Of a stretch of 64,000 nt of DNA, positions 1 to 48,204 are shown in pieces (position 1 is the first letter of the stretch; each line of letters starts with the position of its first letter). The stretch is taken from positions 51,532 through 115,531 of the IMG/VR virus record IMGVR_UViG_3300012973_001074; one strand, 5' to 3'. Made by a program: the position numbers and the translations under genes. Source of the DNA: a virus (Duplodnaviria > Caudoviricetes). The notes under the pieces were generated by a model, which saw only the letters and a program-made list of their open reading frames with translations, was not told the DNA's origin and ran no database searches.

Positions 1-83
1 TTTCGTGCGGATGCGAGCGCGTCCGCGGAGTCGTCGGGCCCCGGTGTTGTCAGTTGGCAATTCGGTCGGCTAGCGTGGATCGA

Positions 84-707
84 ATGAGAATTGTCACTCT
101 CGTCGGATTCGTCGCTCTGGTCGGTGCGTGCTCCAGGGGGAACGCCATTGGTCCCGATGACCGGCACCCGGACGGGCAGCAGAACCAGGACCCTTCGAAG
201 GACGATCCCTCCGACCCTTCGAAGCCGACCCCGTCAGACCCTTCGAAAGCCGGGACGAGCGGTTCGCGGTTGAAGGCGCGCTACTACGAGGGCGAGGACG
301 GCTCGAAGCAGTTCATCGGCTGGTGGGACTCGCAGCGGCAGGAAGACTGTGTGATGGTGCCAGCCAAGGATGGGAAGCTGCGCTGCCTACCGGCGGCAAA
401 TGTCGCCATCACTGGCTACGCAGACGCGAACTGCAGCGTGCCTGTCGTGACGGTCCGCAAGGGCTGCGCTGCGCCGTCGGCGGCAATCGTTATGGAAACG
501 TCAGGGAACGTATCCTGCAGCCTGGGATACGCGTACGCCGCGTACGGTGTAGACCCTGCGAAGTTCACCGGGACGTTGTACGGAGGCTCGCCTTCGACCT
601 GTAAGGTCACAACGGGCGAACCGTACGCCGAAACCATGGATTTTCACCGACTCAGCTCGGAAATTCCTCCGACCTCGTTCGTAGCGGTGAACCAGACGCA
701 CGACTAG
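84..707 (+). CDS. Cys-rich lipoprotein, myxobacterial type (moron)
   Basis: Lipobox LVGAC, Pro/Ser/Asp linker, SGSRLKARY..WDS..C motif. ATG at 84. Confidence 0.75.
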   Translation: MRIVTLVGFVALVGACSRGNAIGPDDRHPDGQQNQDPSKDDPSDPSKPTPSDPSKAGTSGSRLKARYYEGEDGSKQFIGWWDSQRQEDCVMVPAKDGKLRCLPAANVAITGYADANCSVPVVTVRKGCAAPSAAIVMETSGNVSCSLGYAYAAYGVDPAKFTGTLYGGSPSTCKVTTGEPYAETMDFHRLSSEIPPTSFVAVNQTHD

Positions 708-1606
708 TTGAGGCCGACTTCTTCGAGCTCGGGGAGGACGGGGTAGGCGATGCATCGGCAGTTGATGGGCTCGCCCGGGTGGCCCTCTTCGGGGTGACCG
801 TCGGCCCACGTGAAGCGCGCGCCTTCGAGGTCCTTGTGCTCGGGCCGCACGCGCTCGTCGTTGCTCGTCGTCCAGATGTACTCATCGATGCCCGCAGCGG
901 TTTGGCGCTCGCGGGTGATGTTCGCGTTGAGCGTGAGGATCTGGTCCCGCGCGAGCGCCTCGGCGCGCGACAGCGTGACATCGTCGAGCTGGCGCGCGAT
1001 CTCCTTGGCGAGCGTCTGCGCCGTGTGGCCTCGGCCCTCGCGAAGGATCCTCTCGATCTTCGCGAGCTGGTCCTTCTGCATGCCCGTGATGCGGGCGACG
1101 TTGTCCTTCCGCCAGCCGTCGATGAGCCACTTGAGGTGGGGCTCCTTCTCGACGTTGATCCCGAGGCGGGAGAACTCGCGCTGCGAGTGCTGCACGACGC
1201 GCTTGGCTGCGCGGTTCGATGTTCGTGAGAAGCCGGGTTCGTTGAAGGCATCGAAGCCTGCGAACTCCAGGTCCTCGAGAAGCTCGTCGAGCTCCGAGTC
1301 CTCGAGCAGCTCCAGGTCGAGATCCTCGAGCTCGTCACCCGGTGCATCGAGCCGCTCGGCAGCGTCGGTCTTCGTGACGCGGCGCTCAGCGGCGGCGGCG
1401 AGTTTTGGAAAGACGACCTTCCCGACGGCTCGTGCGAAGGCGGCCGCGATGCGGCGAAGCTCCAGCACCATCATCAGCTCGGCCCCGCGCGGCAGTTGAG
1501 GTGAGCGGGTGCGGCGGACGGCGTTGCTGGGAGGGCGTTGGGTCCTCTTCGGGAGCCTCGGTCGGCGAGGCCTTCGCGGCGGATGGCGCAGTGCTGCGCG
1601 AGCCAT
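704..1606 (-). CDS. Phage minor head morphogenesis protein (SPP1 gp7 / MuF family)
   Basis: RAEALARDQ, YIWTTSNDERVRPEH and HPGEPINCRC motifs; downstream of portal. Confidence 0.92.
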   Translation of the reverse strand: MARAALRHPPRRPRRPRLPKRTQRPPSNAVRRTRSPQLPRGAELMMVLELRRIAAAFARAVGKVVFPKLAAAAERRVTKTDAAERLDAPGDELEDLDLELLEDSELDELLEDLEFAGFDAFNEPGFSRTSNRAAKRVVQHSQREFSRLGINVEKEPHLKWLIDGWRKDNVARITGMQKDQLAKIERILREGRGHTAQTLAKEIARQLDDVTLSRAEALARDQILTLNANITRERQTAAGIDEYIWTTSNDERVRPEHKDLEGARFTWADGHPEEGHPGEPINCRCIAYPVLPELEEVGLN

Positions 1607-2107
1607 TCATGCCTGCGTCGGCTCGTCGTCGTTGTTCGCTGCAGGCTCGTCGGTGTTTGCTGCAGGTTCGTCGCCTGGCGGCGCGGGGAGCGCTTCCGGC
1701 GGCGGCGGCAGAGGAGGGATCGGCGGCGGCTCGGGCTCTTCGGGCTCGCTCGGCTGTTCGGGCTGTTCGGGCTCAGGGTCGGGATGCTGGGCAAGCATCT
1801 CGTCGTCCACGCCTTCGAGCATGATCAGCGCGAGATTGTCGACCGGGTCATACGTCAGCGTGACCATGCCCGACGGTGGCTCGATCCCGCGCGCGCGCAG
1901 CACATCGACCAAGCGGGCAGCGTCGGCGAACGCGGCGGGCGAAACGAGCGTGTTCAAGAGCACGAACGGCTCGGTCGATTCGTCGCCTTCGGCGCTGCCC
2001 GTCGTGTCGAACGCGTTGCGACGCAGCCATCGCACGGTCTCACGAATGCCGGGATCGAGCGCGTCATAGTCGATCGGCGGCAATCCGCCGGGGCTTGCAG
2101 GCATCAT
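1607..2107 (-). CDS. Hypothetical phage protein with acidic Pro-rich tail
   Basis: GGGAG RBS before ATG 2107; stop abuts the MuF start; DPGIRETVRWL..FDTTGSAEG. Confidence 0.65.
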   Translation of the reverse strand: MMPASPGGLPPIDYDALDPGIRETVRWLRRNAFDTTGSAEGDESTEPFVLLNTLVSPAAFADAARLVDVLRARGIEPPSGMVTLTYDPVDNLALIMLEGVDDEMLAQHPDPEPEQPEQPSEPEEPEPPPIPPLPPPPEALPAPPGDEPAANTDEPAANNDDEPTQA

Positions 2108-2234
2108 GGATCGTGCTCCCTTCGAGGTCGGCGCTGACTCCCAATTGAACGTCGATTGAATGTCGAAAAACGAAAGAAAGTTCGATGGTTGACTGTGTCT
2201 GGCCTCGTCGGCCATCATCTGCGTCACGACGAAG

Positions 2235-2768
2235 ATGACGAGCAAGACGAAGACGAAGACGAGGCCGAAGACGAAGACGAAGGCGAAGGCGAAGGCGAAG
2301 GACCCGTTCGACGACTTCCCGGCGCGCCTCAAGGCGGCGCGAGAGCGGTGCGGGTATGGAGTGAACGAGCTAGACCGGCTCGTGGGCGTCTCCGTCGGGC
2401 AGACCTCGCGGCTCGAGCTCGGTGCGCGGCCGCGCGTGAGCATAGAGACCGTCGCGAAGTTCGCGCGCGTTCTCGATGTCACCATCGACTGGCTGTGGAA
2501 CGGACCGGTCCCTTCGGGAGGAGTGAAGGTCCTGCAGCGGGGGGCTCGGAGGGAGCCGCGTTACGTGCCCTCGACCCTGCGGCGAGCCATCGGGAGGCCT
2601 CTTGAGGAAGTCGCCGAGAAGGCGGGTATCGGACTGACCAATGTGGCGCGCGTCGAGGCCGGGGAGAACGCGACCCTCGCGGACCTCGCGGGCTTCGCCA
2701 AGGGTATCGACATGAAGCTTGAAGTCGCCTTCGTCGCAGGCGAGCGGCGCTACCGCATCGACGTGTGA
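2235..2768 (+). CDS. XRE-family regulator with two HTH domains
   Basis: RLKAARERCG..ELDRLVGVS..SRLELG and a second LEEVAEKAGIG..VARVEAG. Confidence 0.85.
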   Translation: MTSKTKTKTRPKTKTKAKAKAKDPFDDFPARLKAARERCGYGVNELDRLVGVSVGQTSRLELGARPRVSIETVAKFARVLDVTIDWLWNGPVPSGGVKVLQRGARREPRYVPSTLRRAIGRPLEEVAEKAGIGLTNVARVEAGENATLADLAGFAKGIDMKLEVAFVAGERRYRIDV

Positions 2769-2985
2769 GCCGGCTCTTGCGCGACCGCGATGGCGTTCGT
2801 AGGTTGCGACGCCTCGGAGCCCACACGCAAACTGTCCTCGGTAGGCGAGGGCTGCTTTAGGGAAGCAGATGCGCCGGTGCGACTCCGGCCTCGCGCTCCG
2901 AGCACTCGGTCCCGCTGGCAGACGCTGGCGGGGCCGTCGCGTGTCGGGGTTGAGTCCGCCTGGAATTCGCGATGGACTTGCGGCA

Positions 2986-3636
2986 ATGGAGTCCGCCGTC
3001 ATCACTGCTCTCGCTGCGATCGGCGGCGTGGTCCTTGGTGCATACCTGACACGGAAGAACGCCTTGGCCGTCGCCGAACTGTCGGCGAAGACGGCACGGG
3101 AGCAGGAGCTTGAGCGCGAACGGAGAGCGCTCGCCCGCGACCGGCTGGAGCGGCAGTTCGAAGCAAGGCTCGCCGTGCAGCGATTCGTTCTGAACAACTT
3201 GAACGGCCCTGGTTGGTCGGACCCGGGCGTCCGAGAGGAGGCAGCTCAGATTGCGGGACGGGTAGCATCCGCCTTCACTGCGCCACGCTTCGCAGCGTTC
3301 CTCTACGAGGTGCTCTTCTACGAAGTCGCGCTCCCGATCCGTCCTGGAATGTTCCAGAAGGCGCCACGAACGATGACGGAGAGCCAGCTCTTGGCGCTCT
3401 GGAACCGAAGCGACAAGGAGATGTTGCGCGTCATCGAAGAGACGGTGCGCGTGTCCGGCTATGGCGAGCTGGAGATCCCGAAGGTTCCTTCGAAAGATGA
3501 GGCAGTCAAGGAAGCGCCGCGGACGCGAATCGCGTCCCTGTCCGCGGCGTCCGCGAGCGAGCCAACTGCAGCAGACCCGGAGGCTTCGGAGGAGGCGGCA
3601 GCGCTATCGGACTCGCGGCGCGCTCGGGGCGGCTGA
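2986..3636 (+). CDS. Membrane-anchored hypothetical protein (moron)
   Basis: N-terminal TM segment AVITALAAIGGVVLGAYL followed by a coiled coil. Confidence 0.7.
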   Translation: MESAVITALAAIGGVVLGAYLTRKNALAVAELSAKTAREQELERERRALARDRLERQFEARLAVQRFVLNNLNGPGWSDPGVREEAAQIAGRVASAFTAPRFAAFLYEVLFYEVALPIRPGMFQKAPRTMTESQLLALWNRSDKEMLRVIEETVRVSGYGELEIPKVPSKDEAVKEAPRTRIASLSAASASEPTAADPEASEEAAALSDSRRARGG

Positions 3637-3663
3637 GCCGGGCTGTCATGCTGGCGCTTCGCT

Positions 3664-3682
3664 TTCGGACGCGGTGTCTGAA
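3664..3682. promoter_or_regulatory. Palindromic operator copy TTCGGAC-GCGGT-GTCTGAA
   Basis: Matches the seven other copies of TTCGGAC-N5-GTCCG(T/A)A in the window. Confidence 0.65.
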
Positions 3683-3775
3683 ACCGAAAGCGGCCCAGAA
3701 AGCCCGTCATTTCGCCGTGTAGCGCGACCGGTCGCCGCGCGGTACACTTCTAGTGGACCCGGAAGGAGGGTCTGG

Positions 3776-3967
3776 ATGAATGCGAAGTCCCCGAAGACGG
3801 TAGAGGCACCGAAGCCAGGCAAGTCGAGCCTGGACATGTTCAACGAGGCCTACGCGAAAGCGATGGCCGAGGAAGCCGAGGAGACCGAGAACCTCCCGAA
3901 GGCCTTCACGCCGGAGGAGAGCCTGGTCGAGGTCGTGGACGACGACGACAAGCACTTCGGCGTCTAG
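3776..3967 (+). CDS. Small acidic protein (63 aa) convergent on the zeta-domain gene; candidate antitoxin
   Basis: Strong AAGGAGG RBS; stop overlaps the stop of 3964..5916. Confidence 0.65.
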   Translation: MNAKSPKTVEAPKPGKSSLDMFNEAYAKAMAEEAEETENLPKAFTPEESLVEVVDDDDKHFGV

Positions 3968-5916
3968 CCGCCGCGTTTCCTCTGCAGCTTGACCTTGTGG
4001 CCGTTGGCCGCGTCGTAGACCGTGAGGTTCGGCGCGGCCGCGTGAATTTTGTCGCGGGCCTTTTCGATCTTCGCGTACGTGCCGCGGATGACGTGCTCGG
4101 GCACGTAGCGCCCTGAGCCCTCGGCGCGCGAGGCGGCGCGCCGGACGCCCTCGTCCGGGTTCAGGTCAGGGTGGTGCACGTGGACGTCGTAGCCCTTCGC
4201 TTCGAGGTGGTTCATCAGCGCGATGAACTTGTCGGCGTTGCCGCCCGTGCCGTCGATGATCACGTGGTGCCCGCGGTCGACGGCGCGGTCCCGGATCTGC
4301 TTGGCGACGGCGCTCGACTCCTCGTGCACCTGCGCGGCCGCGCCTCGGAACGTCGGGCCGGCGCTCGGGTCCTTCGGAACGCTCGCCTTGTACTCGGGGA
4401 GCTGGGACTTCACTTCGTCCGGATCGACGTGGACGAAGCGCGACGTGTCGAGACCGTGTTTCGCGAGCTTGCCGAGCACGACGCCTTTGCCGCTCGCCGG
4501 TCCGCCCATCGTGAGGATCGCGATGGGCTTCTCGCCGAGCTCGCCGGCGGTCTTCTTGCCATCGAAGGCGGGCGCGATGAGCTCGCGTTCGTGAAAGGCG
4601 GCGCGCTCGGGCGAGGGCTTGCCGCCTTCGTCCGGGTGCTTGTCGTAGTGGTCCTTCCAGGTCTCGTTGCTCTTGCCCATCAGCTGGCCGGACCACGAGC
4701 CGTCGGGGTTCTCGGTGCCGACCCAGGTGCGACCGGGCTTGAGCGGTTCGTCCTTCGCCGGGGCGGGCTGCTTCTGCGCGCTCGGCGGGACCTTGTCGTG
4801 CGTGCTCGAGAAGTCCCCCGCGGGCCCGCCGCTGCCGCCTCTACCACCGACCTTGTGCAGGCCCGGGCCGGGCGGTCCCTCGCGGTCGCTGCCGCCGCTG
4901 CCGGAGCCGATGCTCGTCCAGCGTCCCTCCTCGTCGCGCGGAACGCCTTCCCACTCGTCCGCGTCCGTGCGCTCTTCACCCGCTTCGAGACCGAATTGCG
5001 CGGCGAGCTGCCTCCACGCCCATTCGAGCTGCTTGTCGGTGAGCTTCGGGTTCTCGCGCTTCGCCTCGGCGAGCCACTGACCCTTGTACTTGCGTGGGTT
5101 CGCTGCGAGCTCGTCGAGGAACTCGTCGCGCGCACGCTTTTCCGTGTCGCTCACGCCCGGCTTCGCATCGGTGCGCGTCTTTTCGAGGCGCATCGTGACG
5201 TAGTCGGGGTGATCGAACCGGTCGTAGTCCCAGTCGGTCGCCGCGTACTCAGAGTTGAACGCATCGCGCGTCGCCTCCTTGAAGCCGACCTTCTCGTAGA
5301 GCTTGTTGAGGGTCGGCCCGTAGCACTCGACGTAGTTGACGCCGTAGTTGTCGACGACGTGACGAAGGAGCTCGACGCCGATGCCCTTCTGGCCACCCTG
5401 GTTGAAGAGCGCTGTCGCCTCGATGCGCCCGTCACCGTGGTCTTTGACCGCGACGCCGGCCTTGCCGTCGGGGCTCATGACGCAGCTCATCTTCCCCAGG
5501 TCTTCGACCCCATAGTGCGAGACGTGATGCTTGAACGGGGAGTCCTTGAACGCAGAGTCGAAGGCCGCCTTGAACTTGTCGGCCTTCTCGCGCACGGGCG
5601 AGACCGCGGCGCGCGCGCCCTCGGCGCTCTTCCAGTCGCCCGAGCTCGAGCCGCCGCCCTTGCCGCCGGGACGGTGCACACCGATGCCCGCGTCGGTCCC
5701 CGCTGAGGTGTCGCCGCCGCTGCTCGTCCAGAGGCCCTTCTCGTCGCGCGGGACCTCCTCCCAGCCTTCGGCGTCCGTGCGTTTCTGCTGCTTGTCGCGA
5801 GAGCCGGTGAGCCCTTCCTGCTCCTTCCTGGCCGCCGCGCCGGGCTCGGGCTCGTCGCCGTCGAAGACGAAGCCGCCGAGCTCGGACGAGATGAACCGGT
5901 CCGCGCGCGTCGTCAT
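3964..5916 (-). CDS. Multidomain virion-associated protein: GNAT-like acetyltransferase + zeta-toxin-like P-loop kinase
   Basis: GNAT: ALFNQGGQKGIGVELL..ECYGPTLNKLYEKVGF. Zeta: MGGPASGKG, DPDEVK, HEESS, IIDGT, SGRYVP. Confidence 0.85.
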   Translation of the reverse strand: MTTRADRFISSELGGFVFDGDEPEPGAAARKEQEGLTGSRDKQQKRTDAEGWEEVPRDEKGLWTSSGGDTSAGTDAGIGVHRPGGKGGGSSSGDWKSAEGARAAVSPVREKADKFKAAFDSAFKDSPFKHHVSHYGVEDLGKMSCVMSPDGKAGVAVKDHGDGRIEATALFNQGGQKGIGVELLRHVVDNYGVNYVECYGPTLNKLYEKVGFKEATRDAFNSEYAATDWDYDRFDHPDYVTMRLEKTRTDAKPGVSDTEKRARDEFLDELAANPRKYKGQWLAEAKRENPKLTDKQLEWAWRQLAAQFGLEAGEERTDADEWEGVPRDEEGRWTSIGSGSGGSDREGPPGPGLHKVGGRGGSGGPAGDFSSTHDKVPPSAQKQPAPAKDEPLKPGRTWVGTENPDGSWSGQLMGKSNETWKDHYDKHPDEGGKPSPERAAFHERELIAPAFDGKKTAGELGEKPIAILTMGGPASGKGVVLGKLAKHGLDTSRFVHVDPDEVKSQLPEYKASVPKDPSAGPTFRGAAAQVHEESSAVAKQIRDRAVDRGHHVIIDGTGGNADKFIALMNHLEAKGYDVHVHHPDLNPDEGVRRAASRAEGSGRYVPEHVIRGTYAKIEKARDKIHAAAPNLTVYDAANGHKVKLQRKRGG

Positions 5917-8834
5917 TGGACCTCCTCGGCATCGATGAGAAGACGCGGCGGGCGACCGATCTCGAGGTCGACCTGCGCGTAGCTTTCGCGCTTCACCGAC
6001 CTGATCCGGAACCGTGTTCCCTTCGGGAGGAGGACCTCGGCTTCGTTCTGGTACTCGGACGCGCCGGAGACCGTGACGCCGCTCTTGTGCTGCACGCGAA
6101 TCACGGCATCGAATCCGTGGGGCAGGACCGCTGCGGTGGCGCCGCGATCGAGGTCCTCCTTTTCGAGGCTCGCGAACTGGGTCGCGACGTCTCGGTGATC
6201 GGAGAAGCTCGTCATCGAGTCGAGCGTGAACGTCTGCGAGTTGAGCATCTTCTCGACGACGCGCGGCGGGACCTGCTTGAGACCGCGGTAGACGGTCCCT
6301 GGCGTTGGGGGCACGTCGCGGAAGATGCCGTTCAGGTGCTCGATCGCCTGCTGCGCGCGCTCGGTGTGGTCCGCCGCGGACGAGGCCCCGTGCAGGAACT
6401 GCTTAGCGAGCTCCTCGGGCGTGCGGACGTGCTGGTCGCCATAGCGATCGGGCTGGGAGCGATACAGCGTCCCGGCTTCGTTCAGCGTGTAGCCGGACTC
6501 GGCGATCCGCTGGTCGAGATGCGCCTGCGTCGCGCGCGTGACCTCTTCGGGATCCGCTCCCGATTCGAGCTTGCGGATCGAAGTGTCGTAGCCCTTCGTG
6601 TACTGCGAGAGCGCATCGTAGTGCTCATCGCGGAGCTTGCTCGCGACGGCCTCCGCAGCGTCGAGGTGAGCGCGCTCGTTGAACGTGTTGCGCGTGTCTT
6701 CCTCGGTTGCGGCCTGCGAGCGGATGACGCGCGCGAGGGCCGCTCTCTCGCTCGCTCGCTCTGCAATCGGAGGCGGCTCGCCATTCTTGAAGAGGTGCTC
6801 TTCGTCGAAGTCTGCGAGCGCCTTCGCCTGCTCGCGCGACAGGCCGCGTGACTCGAGGCGATCGATTCGCTCGGCGACGTCGCCTGATACGCCCTCGCTC
6901 TCGACGATGCTGCTGATGCGCGCGCTCTTGTCGCCAGACCGAGGCTCAGAGCTCGAGTCACCGTCCTTCGGCGTGAACCGGCCCCCATCGGGCTCGCCAG
7001 CCGGCACGCGTTCGACGTTCGCCTCGTCCCAGTCGTCGGTGCGGACCGCGTCGTCGAGGAAGCGGATCTCGGTCTTGCCGCCGTGTCCGTGGATCTCGCG
7101 GACCTCGTCGAGCGAGTCGAAGAGCGTCGTCGAGCGGTGCTTCGTGAGCCAGCGCATGGCGACGGTGCCGTCCTCGAAGACGGCTCCGTGAGCGACGACG
7201 CCGGTACCGGAGACGCCGGTCTCGTCCTCGATGCGGTAGAGCTCGAAGAGGCGCGGACCGCTCGTCGCGTCCGTGCGCACGCGCGCGCGCTCGTAGTCGT
7301 CTTGGGTCGGCTTCGGCTTCTGCGCGACGCCGGGCGGAAGCTGCGGGGGACCTCCCTGCTGGGGGCCTCCCTGCTGCGGGGGACCTCCCTGCGGGGGCGG
7401 ACCTCCCATGCCCGGAGGGGCGCCCGGTCCGCCCATCTCCGTCGGGTCGGGCGGGTTCTCCATTTGCTCGAGGTCGGCCTCGAGCACGGCCTGGCGCGCC
7501 TTGATGGCGTCGTCGGAGAGCCGGACCTCGTCCTCGAAGCCGCCGGCGATGCCGAAGCGCGCGATGGCGACCTCCTCGGGCAGCAGGACCTGGGCCTGGA
7601 TGTACGTCGAGTCCCGCTGCGCGATCGCGCTCTGGCGCTGCGCCTGCACGAGCGGTGTCTCGGTCCAGAGCGGGGTGAACTTGACCGTGAGCGACTTTGG
7701 CCGCGTGCGCGTCGGCGACGCCTTCGACTGCAGCCAGATGACGAGCAGGCGCCGGATCTTCGGCGCGAGCATCGTCGTCTGCTCGGCGCGGATGCGGTCG
7801 TAGAACCAGCGGAAGTCGCTCTCGCCCGTGGCGTTCATGCCGGCGGGCGACTGGCCCATCAGGATGGTGACGGGGATCTGCACCGCCGCGGCGAGGCGGA
7901 GCATGAACTTTTCGAGCGTCGCGGGGATCTCGCTGAACGAGACGGAGTGCCGCGTGAACTCCTCCTTCGCGTCAGCATCGACGACGATGGCGCGCATCAC
8001 CGAGCGGTAGAGCTCGATGATCTGCAGGCGCGCCTGGAGCTTCGCCTGCTCGTTGGCGCCGATCATCTCGGCGAGACCGGTCATCTTGAAGATGGCCTGG
8101 TTGCCGTCGGTGAGCAGCGTCTCGACGGCCGCCCATCCGGTGTTGAACGAGCGCAGCACGTTGTACGCGCGCTGCAGGACGGACATGTCCCAGCCGAAGA
8201 GCTGCTGCCGCTCGCGGATGCCCGTCGATGCTCCGCGGAAGAGGATGAGCCGCGACTCGTGGACAAGCATCGTCGGCGACGACTTGGCCCCGGCCGCGGT
8301 GACGGCGTACGTCTTGGGCGTGCCGAACTTCGGGCCCGGTTCCTCGTAGAAGTCGACGGGCCAGAGAAGTCGGCGATCGAGCGGGTAGAGCCACTCTACG
8401 TCGTTCGCGCGCGCGGGCTTGAGCGGCTTCCAGGCCTCCTGGCCGTCGTCGGCACCGATGAGGACGGCGCCGCCGCCGTAGCAGCGGCCCCACTTGGACC
8501 CTTCTTGGAAGTTGCCGCGGACGTCGAGCGCGTCGAACTTCTCCTGGATGACCTCGTCGAGCTTCGGGTCGCCGGTCTCGATCGAGAACGGCTCGCGAAG
8601 CATCTCCTGCGGGACGACGTCGACCATGCGCGCCGCCATGTCGTCTGCGTGATAGAGCGCGGAGAGCTCGACATCCTCGAGCATCCGGTTCGGTAGGACG
8701 TAGCCGTAGGTCGTCTTGTCGCGCGCGGTGCCGAAGCCGGTGACCTCGTTGATCCACGCGTCGAAGCGCGACGTAGCGCGTGCGCGGAAGGCGCCGAGCG
8801 CCTCGCGCATCTTGATCGACGCGGAGTTCAGCAT
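5913..8834 (-). CDS. DUF1073/HI1409-type phage portal fused to a small beta domain and a C-terminal VIP2-like ADP-ribosyltransferase
   Basis: Portal: LSALY..MAARMVDVVPQEMLR, IPVTILMGQSPAGMNATGESD. ART R-S-E triad: VYRGL, MTSFS, QNEAEVLLPKG. Confidence 0.9.
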   Translation of the reverse strand: MLNSASIKMREALGAFRARATSRFDAWINEVTGFGTARDKTTYGYVLPNRMLEDVELSALYHADDMAARMVDVVPQEMLREPFSIETGDPKLDEVIQEKFDALDVRGNFQEGSKWGRCYGGGAVLIGADDGQEAWKPLKPARANDVEWLYPLDRRLLWPVDFYEEPGPKFGTPKTYAVTAAGAKSSPTMLVHESRLILFRGASTGIRERQQLFGWDMSVLQRAYNVLRSFNTGWAAVETLLTDGNQAIFKMTGLAEMIGANEQAKLQARLQIIELYRSVMRAIVVDADAKEEFTRHSVSFSEIPATLEKFMLRLAAAVQIPVTILMGQSPAGMNATGESDFRWFYDRIRAEQTTMLAPKIRRLLVIWLQSKASPTRTRPKSLTVKFTPLWTETPLVQAQRQSAIAQRDSTYIQAQVLLPEEVAIARFGIAGGFEDEVRLSDDAIKARQAVLEADLEQMENPPDPTEMGGPGAPPGMGGPPPQGGPPQQGGPQQGGPPQLPPGVAQKPKPTQDDYERARVRTDATSGPRLFELYRIEDETGVSGTGVVAHGAVFEDGTVAMRWLTKHRSTTLFDSLDEVREIHGHGGKTEIRFLDDAVRTDDWDEANVERVPAGEPDGGRFTPKDGDSSSEPRSGDKSARISSIVESEGVSGDVAERIDRLESRGLSREQAKALADFDEEHLFKNGEPPPIAERASERAALARVIRSQAATEEDTRNTFNERAHLDAAEAVASKLRDEHYDALSQYTKGYDTSIRKLESGADPEEVTRATQAHLDQRIAESGYTLNEAGTLYRSQPDRYGDQHVRTPEELAKQFLHGASSAADHTERAQQAIEHLNGIFRDVPPTPGTVYRGLKQVPPRVVEKMLNSQTFTLDSMTSFSDHRDVATQFASLEKEDLDRGATAAVLPHGFDAVIRVQHKSGVTVSGASEYQNEAEVLLPKGTRFRIRSVKRESYAQVDLEIGRPPRLLIDAEEVQ

Positions 8835-8911: not shown

Positions 8912-9223
8912 CTATTTCGGCGCGTTCAGCGGGCGGCGGCGCATCCGCTCGATGCGTCGCCGCGTCTGTTCGAGTCCCCGCGAGATAGCCCTCCGCCGAT
9001 CGTCAGGGCTGAGAACGCGAAAGGAGGCAGCACCGGTCGGCGGAGGAGTCTCAGAGATGCGCCGCGTCGGCGGTGGCTCGTCGTCGTCGCGGCAGCCGAC
9101 GAGAGCGCGGAAGCCTGGGGTGCACGGGTCGCGCGCGTCGCACGAGAGCGCGAAGCCTGCGCCGCTTTCCGGCCCGCACGTGCAGTCCTCGCCCATGTCG
9201 CAAGTGAGCGCGTGGACCTTCAC
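8912..9223 (-). CDS. Small Cys-containing hypothetical protein
   Basis: GTGA overlap with the TerL stop; fills the gap before portal. Confidence 0.4.
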   Translation of the reverse strand: MKVHALTCDMGEDCTCGPESGAGFALSCDARDPCTPGFRALVGCRDDDEPPPTRRISETPPPTGAASFRVLSPDDRRRAISRGLEQTRRRIERMRRRPLNAPK

Positions 9224-10608
9224 GTGCCGGTCCTCTTGCCCAGCGCTTCGACCATCGGGTTGACCGTCGAGCAGGCATGCAGCGCCAGGGCGAGGGCCCA
9301 GGCTCGGTCGCCGTGCCCTTCGCTCGTGCGCGGCGTCTCGTACTTGACGTTGCCTGCGCTCGTAATGACGCGCTTGATCGACGCGAGCTCCTTGCGGAGA
9401 AGCTCGGCGGTCTTCGGCTCGGCGAACGGAAGGACCTTGTCCTCGGCGGGGAGCCGGACGTTCTTCGCCGCGGTCGCCGCGTACAGGCCCGTCGCGAGCT
9501 CCTCTTTCATGTTCGGAGTGAAGTCGACGAGCTCGACGCGCGGGCGACGGTGCGGGACGTCGATCCTCTCCGAGTGCTTCCTCTTGATGCGTTCGGCCGG
9601 GAAGTAGCCGAGGCCCGTAGAGTCGATGCAGAGGCGCTTGAGGTGGTACTTCTCGAAGGCGCGCGAGACCATGGCCTCGAGCCCCTCGGAGTCGGTCCGC
9701 TTCATCGTCTCGACGTGGACGACGTAGCGGACGCCTCTCACGAGACGGACGACGAGCAGGACGGACAGGTCGACCTCGCGGCCGATGTCGAGGCCTGCGT
9801 AGTAGTCGCCGTACGCGAGGCCCGGAACGTCGTAGCTGACGCTGCAGGCCTTGATCTGGTCGGTCGGGATGTACTGCAGCTCGTTGTCGAGGAACGAGCA
9901 GCGGAACATCTGCGCGAACAGGCGCGGGTCGCCCTTCGCCAGCTTCCAGCACTTGCGGAGATCGACTGGGTAGCCCTGCGAGATCGCGAGCTCGATCGGA
10001 ATCGAGTGCGGGGCCCATCCGCTGTTCGGCTCGAGGGCCTTTTCCCAGAGGACATGGAAGTCGTTCCCGATGCCGTTCGGCGTCGAGACGACCCGCATCT
10101 TGTAGCCGAGGAGCGTGACGGGCGCGGCCGCGTCCCAGACCTTGGCGGCGTGCTCCTGGTAGGCGAACTCGTCGAGGAAGACGTTGCCGGTGAAGCCGCG
10201 GCCACCGGAGGAGGGGAGCGCGAGGATCCTTCCGCCGCTCGCGAAGGTCAGCTCGTTCGAGTTGTCCTTGCGCCCGAAGCGCGCCATCTCGGAGCCCAGG
10301 GCCTGCAGCACCTGCGCGTGCTTGCGCGCCTTGTCGAGGACCTCGACGGCCTCGCGGTCGCCGACGGAGATGACCGTGGTGAGCTCGCCGTGGAAGGCGC
10401 CCCAGAGAACGCCGACGGCGCTCGTCGTGTGCGAGGTGCCGATCTGGCGAGACTTGTTCGCGATCGCCGCGTCGTTCTGCTCGAACAGCCAGTCGCGCTG
10501 GAACGGGTAGAAGCTGCCGGCCCAGGCGGCGAGCGCCGAGAACTCACTCTCGGGGAGCGCTTGCTGGTACTTCGCCAGCGCCTGCGCCGCTTGACTCGGA
10601 AGCCTCAT
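9220..10608 (-). CDS. terL: Terminase large subunit
   Basis: ANKSRQIGTS (Walker A), VFLDEFAY (Walker B), VSTPNG, YAGLDIGR and HGDRAWALALA nuclease motifs. Confidence 0.93.
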   Translation of the reverse strand: MRLPSQAAQALAKYQQALPESEFSALAAWAGSFYPFQRDWLFEQNDAAIANKSRQIGTSHTTSAVGVLWGAFHGELTTVISVGDREAVEVLDKARKHAQVLQALGSEMARFGRKDNSNELTFASGGRILALPSSGGRGFTGNVFLDEFAYQEHAAKVWDAAAPVTLLGYKMRVVSTPNGIGNDFHVLWEKALEPNSGWAPHSIPIELAISQGYPVDLRKCWKLAKGDPRLFAQMFRCSFLDNELQYIPTDQIKACSVSYDVPGLAYGDYYAGLDIGREVDLSVLLVVRLVRGVRYVVHVETMKRTDSEGLEAMVSRAFEKYHLKRLCIDSTGLGYFPAERIKRKHSERIDVPHRRPRVELVDFTPNMKEELATGLYAATAAKNVRLPAEDKVLPFAEPKTAELLRKELASIKRVITSAGNVKYETPRTSEGHGDRAWALALALHACSTVNPMVEALGKRTGT

Positions 10609-11164
10609 CCGGTGGTCCCTGCTGCTCGGGCGGCGGCGGCGGCGGTTGCTCGAGCCACGCGGGATCGATGGGCGCCGGCGGGACCGTGACCTCGCCGACG
10701 GCGGGGCCTCGCGCGCCGTGCTCGCCGAAGAGCTCCCGCACGAGGCGGGCGGCCTCGACGACCGTGGGCGCGTCGCCCATGAGCGGGCCGCCGTTTGCGC
10801 CGGTGAGCTGCTGCTGTTTCGGCGCGTCGAGCCCGAGGTACGCGGAGATCCGCGTCTGGATGGCGAGCATCCGGTCGATGGCGGCGAGCTCGCCACGCTG
10901 AGCGCGCTGGTAGAGACCGCCGCGCAGGACCGCTTCGAGCCTCGCGACCTCGATCCAGCGCTGCTCGTCGACCGTCTCGTTCGCCTCCTGCCGGAGTCGC
11001 TCGACTGCCTTGCGGAACACCTTGAAGGGACCGGACGCGTTCGCGTAGCCGAGCTCCTTCGCGATCATCGACCACGTGAGCCCGGCGCGCCGGCGCTGGA
11101 TGATCGACTCTTCGAGCTCGAGGTTCGCGACCTCGCCCGCGTCACGCTTCGACGTGTTGCCCAT
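10544..11164 (-). CDS. terS: Probable terminase small subunit (HTH)
   Basis: RRRAGLTWSMIAKELGY HTH, LGLDAP..LTGANGGPL tail; directly upstream of TerL. Confidence 0.75.
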   Translation of the reverse strand: MGNTSKRDAGEVANLELEESIIQRRRAGLTWSMIAKELGYANASGPFKVFRKAVERLRQEANETVDEQRWIEVARLEAVLRGGLYQRAQRGELAAIDRMLAIQTRISAYLGLDAPKQQQLTGANGGPLMGDAPTVVEAARLVRELFGEHGARGPAVGEVTVPPAPIDPAWLEQPPPPPPEQQGPPDEASESSGAGAGEVPASAPRE

Positions 11165-21612: not shown

Positions 21613-22038
21613 ATGATTGAGATGAAGCCGTTTGCACGACATGACTGGTACGGGTTCGCGGGCGCGGAGCGCTTCGCCGACGGCAGCGAGCCGCTGATTG
21701 GCTCGGCCACGGTGGTCTCGGAAGGGACCGAATTCGGCGCGATCGTCGTGCTCGACGCGGTGGGCCTCTTCGTGGAGGTCATCTGCGACGAGGGGAACCG
21801 GCTCGCCTACGTGGTGTTCGAGGGCTCGTACGCCGCGCGCTCTCTGGCGATGCTCGGCAAGAGGGTCGAGTGGCCGGTCCTGCGCGCCATGCCCGGTGCG
21901 GAGGTCCTCGACCACGAGGTGCCGAAAGGGCGCGAAGACGAGCTCGTGTGCGTCGAGTGCGAGCACGGCTCGCACTACGGCATGCCGGACGACGGCGTGC
22001 CCGCCTTCCCGACGGTCTCGACCCTGGCGGCGCACTAA
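21613..22038 (+). CDS. Hypothetical phage protein
   Basis: Follows promoter module; DWYGFAGAE motif. Confidence 0.65.
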   Translation: MIEMKPFARHDWYGFAGAERFADGSEPLIGSATVVSEGTEFGAIVVLDAVGLFVEVICDEGNRLAYVVFEGSYAARSLAMLGKRVEWPVLRAMPGAEVLDHEVPKGREDELVCVECEHGSHYGMPDDGVPAFPTVSTLAAH

Positions 22039-22041
22039 CGC

Positions 22042-22100
22042 GGAGTCCCCGAAGTTTCTTTCGGGGAGCCACTAGACTTTCGGACACGGCGACCGATACT
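22042..22100 (+). promoter_or_regulatory. Bipartite promoter module 3
   Basis: GGAGTCCCCGAAG, TAGACT, TTCGGAC-ACGGC-GACCGAT, GATACT. Confidence 0.78.
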
Positions 22101-22121
22101 AAAGGTGTGAGGGAGACGACA

Positions 22122-23282
22122 ATGGCAAACGTGACCAGCATCAGCAGCAAGAAGTCCACGACCAACGCGAGCGGCCTCGTCCAGCTCGTCGCCGAATTGA
22201 ACGCCGCGTTCCCGGAGCGCTCCGAGGTCGTCGCGGCCCTCGTGACGGTGGCTGTCGCCGGCGAACATGCGGTGATGCTCGGTCCGCCCGGTACCGCGAA
22301 GAGCGCGCTCGCTCGAGCCCTCTCGGCGGCCTTTCAGACAAAGAGCTACTTCGAGCTTCTGATGACGCGGTTCACGACGCCCGAGGAAGTCTTCGGGCCG
22401 GTGAAGCTCTCGGGCCTGCAGCAGGACCGCTTCTCTCGCGCGACGGCGGGCTACTTGCCGACGGCGGAGGTCGCGTTCATCGATGAGATTTTCAAGGCGA
22501 ACAGCGCCATCCTGAACGCGCTGCTCACGGGCCTGAACGAGCGCGTGTTCCACGACGACGGCAAGCCCGTCAGCATCCCGCTCGTCACGTGCATCGCGGC
22601 GAGCAACGAGCTTCCCGAGGGCCCGGAGCTGGACGCGCTCTACGACCGGTTCCTCGTTCGCGTCGTCACCGACTACATCGCGGACCGCGACACGTTCCGT
22701 GACCTCCTCGCCAACATCGCGGGCGGAAAGCACACGAAGGTCGCGGCGACGGTCGACATTCGCGCGGAACAGGCCGCGGCCAAGAAGGTCACGATCACGG
22801 ACGAGACGATCGACGCTCTCACGGGCCTCCGCGACGCGGCTCGCACCGCGGGCCTCACGGTCTCGGACCGCCGGTGGGTCCAGTGCCTCGCGCTCGTTCG
22901 CGCCGCGGCCCACGTCGACGGCCGGGCCTCGACGCTCCCGGATGACCTCGAAATTCTGGAGCACGTGCTCTGGCGCAAGCCGGACGAGCGAGTCTCGGTG
23001 GCGCGGACCATCCAGACGACGGTGAACCCGGCAGGCGCGAGGGCGGTCGAAGAGCTCGACGCCGCGCGAGAGCTTCTCGCGAAGCTCCCGGTCCACGGCT
23101 CGGTCGACCCGGGCTCTTACATGGCCGCGATCGGCAGCGCGACGAAGGACATCAGCGAGATCCTCAAGCGGGTCTCGGGCCTCCCGTCGGGCCGCAAGGT
23201 GGACGCCGCGAAAGCGGAGATCGCCAAGATCAAGCAGGACATCGGCAGGCGGGCAATGCGCGCGGCGGGCATTGAGCTGTGA
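22122..23282 (+). CDS. MoxR/RavA-like AAA+ ATPase
   Basis: LGPPGTAKS, TRFTTPEEVFGP, FIDEIFKANSAILNALL, ASNELP, ALYDRF. Confidence 0.93.
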   Translation: MANVTSISSKKSTTNASGLVQLVAELNAAFPERSEVVAALVTVAVAGEHAVMLGPPGTAKSALARALSAAFQTKSYFELLMTRFTTPEEVFGPVKLSGLQQDRFSRATAGYLPTAEVAFIDEIFKANSAILNALLTGLNERVFHDDGKPVSIPLVTCIAASNELPEGPELDALYDRFLVRVVTDYIADRDTFRDLLANIAGGKHTKVAATVDIRAEQAAAKKVTITDETIDALTGLRDAARTAGLTVSDRRWVQCLALVRAAAHVDGRASTLPDDLEILEHVLWRKPDERVSVARTIQTTVNPAGARAVEELDAARELLAKLPVHGSVDPGSYMAAIGSATKDISEILKRVSGLPSGRKVDAAKAEIAKIKQDIGRRAMRAAGIEL

Positions 23283-23504: not shown

Positions 23505-24962
23505 ATGACGATGGATCGCGCGAACTGCTACGACGTCCCGAAGCACCACCGAAACCTGTGGCGCGACTACTCGACGGAGACCCGCGAGCCGGCGCGCGTC
23601 GCGGAGACCGGCGACAAGCGCGCGTCGGGCTTCGGCGAGGGCTTCATGCCGGAGCTGTTTCACCGACTGTACGCGGAGACGCCGCGCGAGGTGGCGGACG
23701 ACTCCCGGTCGACGGCGGCGGCGGTTCGGTCGAAGCTCCACGGCCTCGTGAGCGAGCTGCCGGAGTTTGAGACCCTGCGCAAGCAGACCGTGCGCGACGC
23801 AATGTGGTCCGGGATGGCGGCGACGGCGCTCGCCGACCACGTCACGCGGGTGATGCCGGACCTCTCGCCCAACACGCCGGACGCGGACCGCGCGACGGCG
23901 CTGCTCGAAGGCCTGCAGCAGCTCGCCGGCGACACGCCGGAGGCGGCGCTCGCGTTCGCCTCGCACGTTGCGAAGGCCAAGGCCGCAGCGGAAGCCGCGG
24001 ACGCGGCGGTGAGCGCGCAGGCCGCGAGCCTCGACGAAACGGCGCTCCGGCAGGCGATGCGCGCGGGCATCAAGGCCGCGGCGGACGCGATTGACGAGGC
24101 GGAGGCGGCGCTCGCGTCGCTCGGTTGGGGAACGTCGGTCTCGGGCGGCGGAGCGAACAAGGCCCCGGGCGTCGCGGTCGAGCTGGCTCGCCGGGTGCGC
24201 TCGTCGGAGACCTTGAAGCGGATCATCGAGCTTGCGGGTCGGCTCATCCTGACCGCGCGGCAGAAGCGAGCCACGCGAACCGAGTATGCCCGCAGCGAAA
24301 TCGTGGGCGTCGAGCAGACCGGGAACCTCGCGCGGATCCTCCCGAGTGAGCTCGTCTCGCTCGCCGACCCGATGATGACCGCGAGCCTCTACCGGCGAGT
24401 CCTCGAGCGCGCGGCGCTCGGGTACAAAATGGCCGGCTCGGAACGGTCGGCGAAGGGACCGATCGTCCTCCTGCTCGACCAGAGCGGCTCGATGCTCGAC
24501 GACGGAAAGGACGAATGGGCGAAGGGCGTCGCGCTTGCGCTGCTCGACGCGGCCCGCGCGGAGAAGCGAGCCTTCGGGATCATCCTCTACAACGGCGGCG
24601 TTGCTGAGGCGAAGCTCTTCCCGGTCGCCGCGGACGCCGACCCGCGCGCCATCCTCGACCTGCTCTCGCGGTCGCCGGACGGCGGAACGAACTACGCTCC
24701 CGCGATGAAGCAGGCCCTCGACTGGATCTCGACGGCCGGGACCTTCAAGCGCGCGGACGTGGTCCACATCACCGACGGCGAGGCTGACACGAAGGAGGCA
24801 GCGGCCGCTCGGACCCGCGCGAAGGACCTCGGCGTCCACATCTTCGGCATCGGAATCGCGGGCGGTGGCCGGGCTCTGGAGGCCTGGAGCGACGAGGTCC
24901 GGACCATCCGCGACGTCAAAGCGGACGCCCCGGCGGTCGACTTGATCTTCGATTCGATCTGA
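23505..24962 (+). CDS. ViaA-like vWA domain protein
   Basis: GNLARILPSEL, GPIVLLLDQSGSM (MIDAS), GGTNY, ITDGE. Confidence 0.92.
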   Translation: MTMDRANCYDVPKHHRNLWRDYSTETREPARVAETGDKRASGFGEGFMPELFHRLYAETPREVADDSRSTAAAVRSKLHGLVSELPEFETLRKQTVRDAMWSGMAATALADHVTRVMPDLSPNTPDADRATALLEGLQQLAGDTPEAALAFASHVAKAKAAAEAADAAVSAQAASLDETALRQAMRAGIKAAADAIDEAEAALASLGWGTSVSGGGANKAPGVAVELARRVRSSETLKRIIELAGRLILTARQKRATRTEYARSEIVGVEQTGNLARILPSELVSLADPMMTASLYRRVLERAALGYKMAGSERSAKGPIVLLLDQSGSMLDDGKDEWAKGVALALLDAARAEKRAFGIILYNGGVAEAKLFPVAADADPRAILDLLSRSPDGGTNYAPAMKQALDWISTAGTFKRADVVHITDGEADTKEAAAARTRAKDLGVHIFGIGIAGGGRALEAWSDEVRTIRDVKADAPAVDLIFDSI

Positions 24963-31151: not shown

Positions 31152-31234
31152 CGCGGCCTCCGCACGAGAGACGAGACAACGCCCATCACCGATTGGTGAT
31201 CGTGCGCCATGGGGCGACGGAGGAAAGGTGTATC

Positions 31235-47902: not shown

Positions 47903-48204
47903 GCATCTTCTTCGCACGCCATCGCCAAGCGCTGCAAGGCGTCCGTTGCCAGCCAGGGACCGCCGTCCGGAGAGGCCCTCAGAGAGCTGCTCGGCGCGCG
48001 CCGGGTCGGGCCGATGTGGGCGAGCGCACGACCGGAACGCGTCACGATTCGTCGCTGCCGACAGAGCCGGTGAAGCGGCGAGAGTAGTGACGACGACCTC
48101 GGGGATCGAGGTGCTCACGCCGGACGGCGCGGGGAAGGGCCACCGAATGAGGCCCGCGGCGATCGCGGTTGCCGCACAGGCATTGATGCGATAGGCGATC
48201 GAAA

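Follow-up and report, generated by a model that had tools for sequence, protein, structure and literature searches.

The DNA analyzed here, called the window, is a 64,000-nucleotide stretch (bases 51532-115531) of one 115.5-kb contig, IMG/VR record IMGVR_UViG_3300012973_001074, and it holds the start of a head module, that of a tailed phage (or prophage) with the same head-gene families as T1-like phages. Within this module the portal protein is a long fusion, and it is followed by a translationally coupled gene for a 650-aa protein. As an explanation of the whole arrangement, we consider it probable that these two products are polyvalent cargo proteins that carry four enzyme modules and are cut apart by the head protease of the phage at short sites of the form R-T-D-[AD]. 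A short related peptide, which we refer to as the tag, precedes three of the modules. The two genes are laid out as follows, in window coordinates.

5913-8834, minus strand: 973-aa portal polyprotein, made up of leader, portal core, P/G/Q linker, Acb5-family domain, tag, linker and ADP-ribosyltransferase (ART) domain
7608-8669, minus strand: portal domain, Phage_portal_3 / DUF1073, aa 56-409 (E 8.5e-72; TIGR01555 200.5 bits)
7041-7268, minus strand: 76-aa Acb5-family domain, untagged, assigned from sequence homologues and a structure match
6972-7031, minus strand: tag ahead of the ART domain, of the subtype R-V-P-A-G-x3-G-G-x-F
5961-6542, minus strand: ART domain (ADPrib_exo_Tox 28.9 bits against a cutoff of 23.4; ART E 2e-4)
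3964-5916, minus strand: 650-aa stand-alone cargo polyprotein, its ATG overlapping the portal stop codon (ATGA)
5725-5763, minus strand: tag W-E-E-V-P-R-D-E-K-G-L-W-T, then a Gly/Ser linker, ahead of the GNAT-like domain
5176-5634, minus strand: GNAT-like domain, aa 95-247, from a structure match, the sequence match being weak
4972-5166, minus strand: helical spacer of ~65 aa, ending in a helix ahead of the next site and tag
4915-4953, minus strand: tag W-E-G-V-P-R-D-E-E-G-R-W-T, then a long Gly/Pro-rich linker, ahead of the zeta domain
4003-4536, minus strand: zeta-toxin-type P-loop kinase domain (Zeta_toxin, PF06414, E 7.2e-27, 94.6 bits)

A previous inspection of the letters alone (the sequence-only reading) had picked out eight motifs of the R/K-x-D-A/D type in the portal, 650-aa and MuF head proteins and had proposed that the prohead protease cuts after R-x-D. 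All eight were present on the minus strand where that reading had placed them, as was one further match that it had not listed, K-F-D-A at 8529-8540, within the portal fold.

8757-8768, minus strand: R-F-D-A, aa 23-26, where the conserved portal core begins; may mark N-terminal processing, with less certainty than any other site
7266-7277, minus strand: R-T-D-A, a predicted cut releasing the Acb5-family domain from the portal
7032-7043, minus strand: R-T-D-D, a predicted cut separating the Acb5-family domain from the tagged ART module
5770-5781, minus strand: R-T-D-A behind the 45-aa N-terminal leader of the 650-aa protein
5164-5175, minus strand: R-T-D-A bordering the GNAT-like domain on its C-terminal side, with no tag after it
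4960-4971, minus strand: R-T-D-A ahead of the tagged zeta module
1343-1372, minus strand: K-T-D-A (1361-1372) and R-L-D-A (1343-1354) of MuF, predicted cuts removing the MuF N-terminal region

The strict form of the motif is strongly concentrated in the two cargo genes. Translated in all six frames, the window holds nine instances of R-T-D-[AD], five of them in these genes; among the called genes of the whole 115-kb contig (GC3-based calls, 31,900 aa), the comparison of head with non-head reading frames that the sequence-only reading had suggested places five of five in the two cargo proteins and none in the other ~30,000 aa. Five instances in 1,623 aa compare with 0.098 expected (Poisson P(≥5) = 6.9e-8), and 0 of 20,000 shuffles reached five. 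The looser pattern [RK]-x-D-[AD] is common, with 65 occurrences in the 31,900 aa of gene calls, and the case for R-x-D as such therefore rests on position and on conservation in homologues.

The same reading had predicted that a DUF2213-type protease/scaffold gene and a capsid gene bearing the motif would lie to the left of the window, and both were found there. The minus-strand order within the window is large terminase (TerL), DUF1073 portal, cargo polyprotein and MuF; past a plus-strand lipoprotein gene the operon resumes left of the window with a protein comprising Peptidase_S78, DUF2213 and a scaffold-like tail, and further left come a cement protein, a PF09950 major capsid protein and then neck, sheath and tape-measure genes.

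L001:15715-18294, minus strand, left of the window: protease-scaffold gene with Peptidase_S78, DUF2213 and a scaffold-like tail

The DUF2213 match (PF09979, E 4.1e-34, aa 440-593) is followed by a K/E/A-rich C-terminal region, as befits a protease-scaffold protein. The two protease folds stand in tandem, S78 before DUF2213, and are separated by an acidic stretch, the tetrapeptide R-A-D-A, a Gly/Ser linker and a tag. Modeled with AlphaFold on an 18-sequence alignment (pLDDT 83), the DUF2213 domain had T4 gp21 (5jbl) as its sole significant Protein Data Bank (PDB) match in Foldseek (prob 1.0, TM score 0.56-0.64), and Ser132 and His162 are invariant in the 18 sequences. The domain models as a T4 gp21-like prohead protease with the gp21/assemblin fold. 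T4 gp21 cuts after Glu, at L/I-x-E, and it would thus be unsurprising for a relative to cut after Asp. The T1-like protein has been treated as an N-terminal serine protease, with a catalytic Ser, joined to a C-terminal scaffold (bioRxiv 10.1101/2023.05.21.541620).

Conservation of the sites was assessed in 23 related viral contigs, which were retrieved by way of the portal core, their genes sorted by BLAST and each family aligned. The motif columns are kept in these contigs as cargo and surrounding sequence vary, which is the check that the sequence-only reading had suggested for homologous loci. In MuF, the linker between the basic N-terminal region and the core varies in length and holds a single conserved column block, [RKH]-x-D-[AG], with D in 21/21 sequences, A in 19/21 and G in 2/21. 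The capsid protein carries [RHQ]-x-D-A at the opening of its conserved core, 20-30 residues from the N-terminus, D-A being found in all 15 of 15 sequences. At the S78/DUF2213 junction the protease-scaffold proteins read [RK]-[TF]-D-x in each of eight aligned relatives (seven two-domain proteins and L024), and the end of the DUF2213 domain reads R/K-[LV]-D-[SAT] in relatives, with D-N in the subject phage and D-F in L032; more sites lie near the scaffold C-terminus. Junctions within portal fusions follow the same pattern. The portal of L004 has K-L-D-A and R-Y-D-D, the latter preceding the same Acb5-family small domain as in the subject phage, and portals with other cargo have R-F-D-A (L011, a P-loop protein) or N-F-D-A and R-L-D-A (L012). 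The portal N-terminal motif keeps its D in 20/20 relatives and its R/K in ~13/20; the R-F-D-A at this position runs on into a conserved D-x-W-x-N..T-G-x-G-T block and may be structural.

A cut that has been read chemically comes from phage TLS. PDB matches of the capsid protein pointed to T1-like phages, and tblastn with the protease-scaffold protein of the subject phage returned mainly T1-like and Vibrio phages. The N-terminus of the mature TLS capsid protein was determined by Edman degradation as A-S-D-M-G-I-W (PMC11447400). In the TLS gene record this string is preceded by A-K-N-D, which places the cut at K-N-D↓A, the arrow marking the bond broken; the 45 removed residues given in the TLS paper disagree with the current record, in which the string starts at residue 28, and the Edman string itself was used. 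BLASTP (E 2e-27) aligned the D-A of the TLS cut with D20-A21 of the capsid protein of the subject phage. The TLS head is built from the same families, MuF included, with DUF2213 as its sole protease-like domain. K-x-D-A recurs several times in the scaffold part of the TLS protease-scaffold protein, whose N-terminus has R-F-D-S. Together, the columns conserved in the 23 contigs and the TLS cut lend support to the proposal of the sequence-only reading, and cleavage after R-x-D is well supported by homology. Elsewhere, the paper on Rogue1 does not give the exact capsid N-terminus, the paper on Pa193 leaves scaffold cleavage undecided, and in the DUF2213 literature we found nothing on cleavage specificity.

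Given that two protease folds are present, we considered whether the cutting enzyme is instead the N-terminal Peptidase_S78, with DUF2213 serving here as a non-catalytic scaffold or assembly domain. The isolated N-terminal domain scores above the Pfam cutoff (24.5 bits against 21; 20.1 bits in the full open reading frame) and retains the H-D, S-I-G-Y and E-V-S blocks. However, DUF2213 stands without S78 in 9 of 17 related protease-scaffold proteins and in TLS, which still keep the motif, and the TLS capsid protein is cleaved at it, so that DUF2213 is the likelier cutter; its gp21 fold and its invariant Ser and His point the same way, and we think it unlikely that S78 makes the cuts. A predicted complex of the DUF2213 domain with aa 300-345 of the 650-aa protein, which include a site and a tag, scored 0.02, below the mark, and counts neither for nor against either domain.

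A different account of the same data would dispense with cleavage altogether. The R-T-D motif and the tag could be a linker cassette duplicated during domain shuffling, in which case the proteins would remain uncut and the portal ring would keep the ART and Acb5-family domains tethered. A tag (13-20 aa in length) does follow three of the five R-T-D sites at a distance of 0-2 residues, the best two tags are 71% identical in DNA across 90 nt, and tags in other proteins have no enrichment of R-x-D beside them. Against this, the R-T-D-A motifs at 7266-7277 and 5164-5175 are untagged, the same column is conserved in MuF, capsid and scaffold proteins of relatives that have no tags at all, and in TLS the aligned position of the capsid protein is a cut site. 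The Acb5 family supplies a further objection, as its members are normally free and tetrameric and would fit poorly with a permanent 12-fold tether. We give this account little credence and return to a polyprotein that would be cut at its junctions.

The domain between the two portal sites is where our reading of the cargo departs from the earlier one, which had held that segments without enzymes lack the tag. This generalization fails, for the untagged 76-aa segment belongs to the Acb5 family, of which the tested members are cGAMP nucleases. Its free-standing homologues number 135 and measure 64-130 aa (50-68% identity, best E 9e-22), the 120 of them that were listed are all annotated as PF26761 (Acb5), and the structure of the segment matches an Acb5 cluster with a TM score of 0.89. 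Acb5 has been described as an anti-CBASS family of 3'3'-cGAMP nucleases, usually free proteins of ~70 aa that are active as tetramers, and mutation of R10, W38 or H61 abolishes the activity of Acb5A (bioRxiv 10.1101/2025.07.12.664507). In our alignment of the family R12, W40, H60 and H62 are invariant, and these agree, by position only, with the activity-required Acb5A residues. The untagged insert is probably an enzyme of the Acb5 family, as judged from these homologues. The two R-T-D sites bracket it with margins of 5-8 residues, which fits its excision from the 12-fold portal ring. T1-like DUF2213 protease-scaffold proteins have been reported as triggers of type I CBASS (bioRxiv 10.1101/2023.05.21.541620). 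We note that a phage with the same protease family carries an Acb5-family domain on its portal.

The other three enzymes named by the sequence-only reading, ART, GNAT-like and zeta, are present, and with the Acb5-family domain its count of three should be four. The ART domain has the residues of the Arg-type (R-S-E) enzymes, namely R, S-x-S and E-x-E, in the forms Y-R-G, T-S-F-S and N-E-A-E. The zeta domain retains a Walker A loop, G-P-A-S-G-K-G. By sequence the GNAT-like domain reaches 16.5 bits with Acetyltransf_7, below the cutoff of 27; by structure it matches GNAT clusters with TM scores of 0.68-0.70 and a viral cluster, 99% of which is MuF-fused, with 0.80, so that the call is made from structure and not from sequence, and we use the term GNAT-like throughout. 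The helical spacer that follows it had no Pfam match, and a helix also stands ahead of the motif in other tag-bearing proteins.

With portal, Acb5-family and ART domains in one reading frame and GNAT-like and zeta domains in the next, coupled one, the two genes have the composition of polyvalent proteins. A zincin-like metallopeptidase, which is common but not obligatory in that family, was absent from both: Pfam and NCBIfam scans gave no M-type peptidase match in the portal polyprotein or the 650-aa protein.

Zeta and ART are also classic toxin domains, and phage-borne polymorphic toxins have been proposed (Jamet et al., PMC5576092). Hence, the enzymes might be no part of the virion, but rather effectors or toxins expressed late or in lysogeny, along the lines of the MuF-type polymorphic toxins of bacterial competition, that merely sit in the head operon; the morons within the same operon, among them an Xre-type regulator, could be cited in favor. 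It is difficult to reconcile this with the covalent placement of the ART and Acb5-family domains in the only portal gene found in the module, with the ATGA overlap that couples the 650-aa gene to the portal gene, or with the three copies in the 650-aa protein of a motif that otherwise marks maturation sites of head proteins. We regard it as very improbable, and packaged cargo as the better description of the four enzymes.

The third protein with predicted cuts, MuF, differs in having no effector of its own.

704-1606, minus strand: MuF head protein, core at 749-1033 (Phage_Mu_F E 8.5e-21; 21-protein alignment)

It consists of a conserved basic N-terminal region, the K-T-D-A and R-L-D-A motifs and the MuF core, and carries no C-terminal toxin of the kind found on MuF polymorphic toxins, the protein stopping 14 residues past the core. 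The Arg-rich aa 1-80 (R-R-R-P-R .. P-x-R-A-x-R .. P-P-R-x-A), upstream of the predicted cut, are conserved over the 21 relatives, and this N-terminal region may be a removable propeptide for assembly or DNA binding. A related MuF gene, L009:1609-3420, has an insert of ~300 aa exactly inside its C-terminal Cys motif, which begins with Cys and ends with Asn-Cys and is intein-like.

The tag proved not to be peculiar to the subject phage. The three copies read as the sequence-only reading had quoted them, and they do stand on three enzyme segments; its suggestion that the tag is confined to cargo enzymes did not hold, as a fourth copy, N-V-P-R-E-E-D-G-R-W-T, stands just before DUF2213 in the protease-scaffold gene (L001:15715-18294, ~aa 400). 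In a scan with a degenerate DNA pattern the core motif turned up in a further five viral contigs, where the bearers include a 1,716-aa protein with two ART domains, a NUDIX domain and three copies of the motif, and another DUF2213 protein with the tag ahead of its protease domain. We then compared a profile of ten tags with 1.84 billion representative proteins (E <= 1e-3). This gave 97 large phage proteins with 351 motif copies, against a chance expectation that we estimate at ~3, with up to 11 copies per protein at a median spacing of 241 aa and the consensus K-[YF]-D-P-D-Q-P-R-D-E-x-G-R-W-T-S-G-G-G. Judged by sequence, the tag is the form taken in this lineage by a leader motif that is widespread among polyvalent proteins of phages, P-R-D-[ED]-x-G-[RK]-W-T followed by a Gly-rich linker. 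The second subtype, R-[VI]-P-A-G-x3-G-G-x-[WF], to which the ART tag belongs, is likewise widespread (P0033, P0036, P0069, P0074 and P0093).

Among 55 tag-bearing proteins scanned for domains, MuF was present in ten, others having ART-PolyVal, Zeta, ADPrib_exo_Tox, DUF7178, NUDIX, Acb1, GNAT and Peptidase_S78_2, and none had a conjugation family. One tag-bearing protein lies downstream of a PF04860 portal and adjoins a zeta gene. The idea that the tag is restricted to phages with DUF1073 portals or DUF2213 proteases was rejected, given its presence next to a PF04860 portal and within an S78_2 protein. No Pfam or NCBIfam model covers the tag, and a literature search with the motif strings found no description of it. 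A word-indexed protein search with the zeta tag region (aa 303-345 of the 650-aa protein) returned nothing at E <= 1, the motif being too short for that method. Two of the tag-bearing proteins, P0014 and P0061, have a zincin-like motif, H-E-Y-G-H-H, and one tag of P0014 is preceded by R-H-F-D-A; a metallopeptidase module and the tag may co-occur in these proteins.

With regard to function, for which the sequence-only reading had proposed packaging or ejection, our best guess, held tentatively, is that the tag serves encapsidation or exit as a docking or tether peptide. In 50 of 96 tag-bearing proteins the first copy is found no further than 60 residues from the N-terminus, indicating that the motif precedes modules and is not a mere joiner, and a leader motif so widespread fits an address function. 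A broader form of this idea is that the tag and its Gly linker are a portable address label, used in many tailed-phage lineages to load or to thread out each polyvalent cargo module, and that DUF2213 phages have set an [RK]-x-D↓A cut directly before it; we regard this form as possible, though doubtful. Alternatively, and next in likelihood, the tag could be a processing signal, either an exosite that recruits a protease to the neighboring linker or a sequence itself cut by another phage or host protease. Its position at module junctions with domain-sized spacing, the Gly-rich linker that always follows it, its place directly behind the predicted cut site in the subject phage and the H-E-x-x-H zincin-like modules of P0014 and P0061, of the kind that Iyer et al. 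proposed for polyvalent processing, would all be consistent with such a role. In half of the proteins, however, there is no upstream module for a first tag to remove, the tag is found with differing protease and portal families (S78_2, DUF2213, PF04860 portals), and no peptidase family is common to the 55 proteins scanned. A processing signal therefore seems unlikely to us, and we keep to an address-like peptide as the preferred description.

The course of events that we envisage is as follows. The modules would enter the procapsid as polyproteins, the portal fusion being built in as part of the portal ring. The DUF2213 prohead serine protease would, by homology, cut after Asp in [RK]-x-D↓[A/G/S/D], and the same enzyme would act on the capsid protein and MuF, on its own scaffold part and at each of the five cargo junctions. 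Freed inside the head, the enzyme modules would then exit along with the DNA; excision of the Acb5-family domain would leave margins of just 5-8 residues, and the tag would help in loading or exit.

Several observations weigh against this scheme. For the cargo junctions, cleavage is an extrapolation from a single capsid site in TLS, whose capsid protein is 24% identical to that of the subject phage. The conserved D-A at the N-termini of capsid and portal could be partly structural, and the R/K of the portal motif is lost in about a third of relatives. The apparently intact Peptidase_S78 of the phage is a second candidate for the cutting domain. The 650-aa protein has no portal, MuF or scaffold domain to bring it into the procapsid; its N-terminal leader and its tags are candidates for that role. 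Finally, [RKH]-x-D-[AGS] lies upstream of 6.0% of 350 tags in 96 other tag-bearing proteins, compared with 5.4% expected. A general pairing of site and tag was rejected on these figures; the pairing is thus lineage-specific, and the function of the tag cannot be read from it.

The remaining genes of the head module within the window, together with those inserted into it, are listed here.

9220-10896, minus strand: large terminase, the first gene of the head module (Terminase_6N and Terminase_6C matches), with zero R/K-x-D-[AD] matches
2869-3636, plus strand: putative membrane protein inserted in the head operon
2235-2768, plus strand: Xre regulator with a double helix-turn-helix, inserted in the head operon
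1607-2200, minus strand: small, very acidic, Pro-rich protein abutting the MuF start
54-707, plus strand: DUF7481 lipoprotein between the MuF and protease genes

It is possible that inserted genes of the operon are immunity or antitoxin partners of the zeta or ART modules. Elsewhere on the contig, a 1,722-aa Type ISP restriction-modification enzyme (Mrr_cat_2, ResIII, ISP_coupler, N6_Mtase, Type_ISP_C) is encoded at window positions 42950-48118 on the minus strand. On the plus strand, a bpMoxR AAA ATPase (21870-23282) is followed by a VWA-domain protein (23505-24962), the pairing of MoxR-vWA ternary systems, and a DUF5131 protein (phage Gp37/Gp68 family; 31193-33100) is split by a LAGLIDADG_3 domain that is probably an intein.

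If the scheme holds, its consequences would extend beyond this phage. An [RK]-x-D↓[AGSD] code would cover many phage heads, including those of the T1-like Drexlerviridae, and would make mature virion proteomes and released cargo predictable from sequence. The four enzymes, apparently pre-loaded and freed in the head, would be available at DNA entry, before phage gene expression, and the portal-borne Acb5-family domain is a plausible pre-emptive countermeasure, given the reported triggering of type I CBASS by protease-scaffold proteins of T1-like phages. Should the tag act as an address, the handling of giant polyvalent proteins would have an explanation, and the tag would be a simple handle for putting reporter proteins into phage capsids in laboratory strains. 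Were the portable-label idea true as well, cut sites and labels would add up to a fully modular "cut here, tagged cargo follows" system coupled to a predictive cleavage code for the T1-like head family.

Among the closest known systems is the T1-like (Drexlerviridae) head, as in phage TLS (gp31-gp36), which has the same portal, MuF, DUF2213 protease-scaffold, cement and PF09950 capsid families and whose capsid protein is cut at K-N-D↓A. TLS has no cargo fusions, S78 domain or tags, all of which are present in the subject phage, and the TLS paper does not state a general cleavage consensus (PMC11447400). T4 has a prohead protease with the fold of DUF2213, which cleaves behind an acidic residue and matures capsid, scaffold and packaged enzymes, including an ART delivered with the DNA (Alt). 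The T4 gp21 site is L/I-x-E, whereas here P1, the residue before the cut, is Asp, in [RK]-x-D↓A; T4 cargo consists of separate small proteins, in contrast to the polyproteins here on the portal and its neighboring gene; and the T4 targeting peptide is removed, whereas the tag lies C-terminal of the predicted cut and would be retained by the cargo after release.

The polyvalent proteins of Iyer, Burroughs, Anand, de Souza and Aravind (2017, PMC5512222) are likewise multi-effector proteins fused or adjacent to portal and MuF, with the same repertoire of ART, zeta, GNAT and NUDIX domains. Iyer et al. propose that zincin-like metallopeptidase domains process them, whereas the junctions here carry the head protease's own site and no zincin-like domain; the leader motif P-R-D-x-x-G-R-W is not mentioned there. 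The MuF polymorphic toxins (Jamet et al. 2017, PMC5576092) likewise tie toxin-type domains to head-morphogenesis proteins, but in the subject phage the effectors are on the portal and a separate polyprotein, MuF has no C-terminal toxin and no obvious immunity gene was identified. The portal insert resembles the Acb5 nucleases in its 50-68% identity to PF26761 members and in its invariant R, W and H, and differs in that they are encoded by a free gene, whereas here the domain is embedded in the portal between two predicted protease sites. Hence, the overall logic is that of T4, with its gp21, targeting peptides and Alt, combined with that of the polyvalent proteins of Iyer et al. What appears to be new is an Asp-specific site that is common to T1-related head proteins and would be reused as a separator of cargo modules, the carriage of a probable Acb5-family enzyme on the portal, and the link of the cut site to a widespread and apparently undescribed leader motif.

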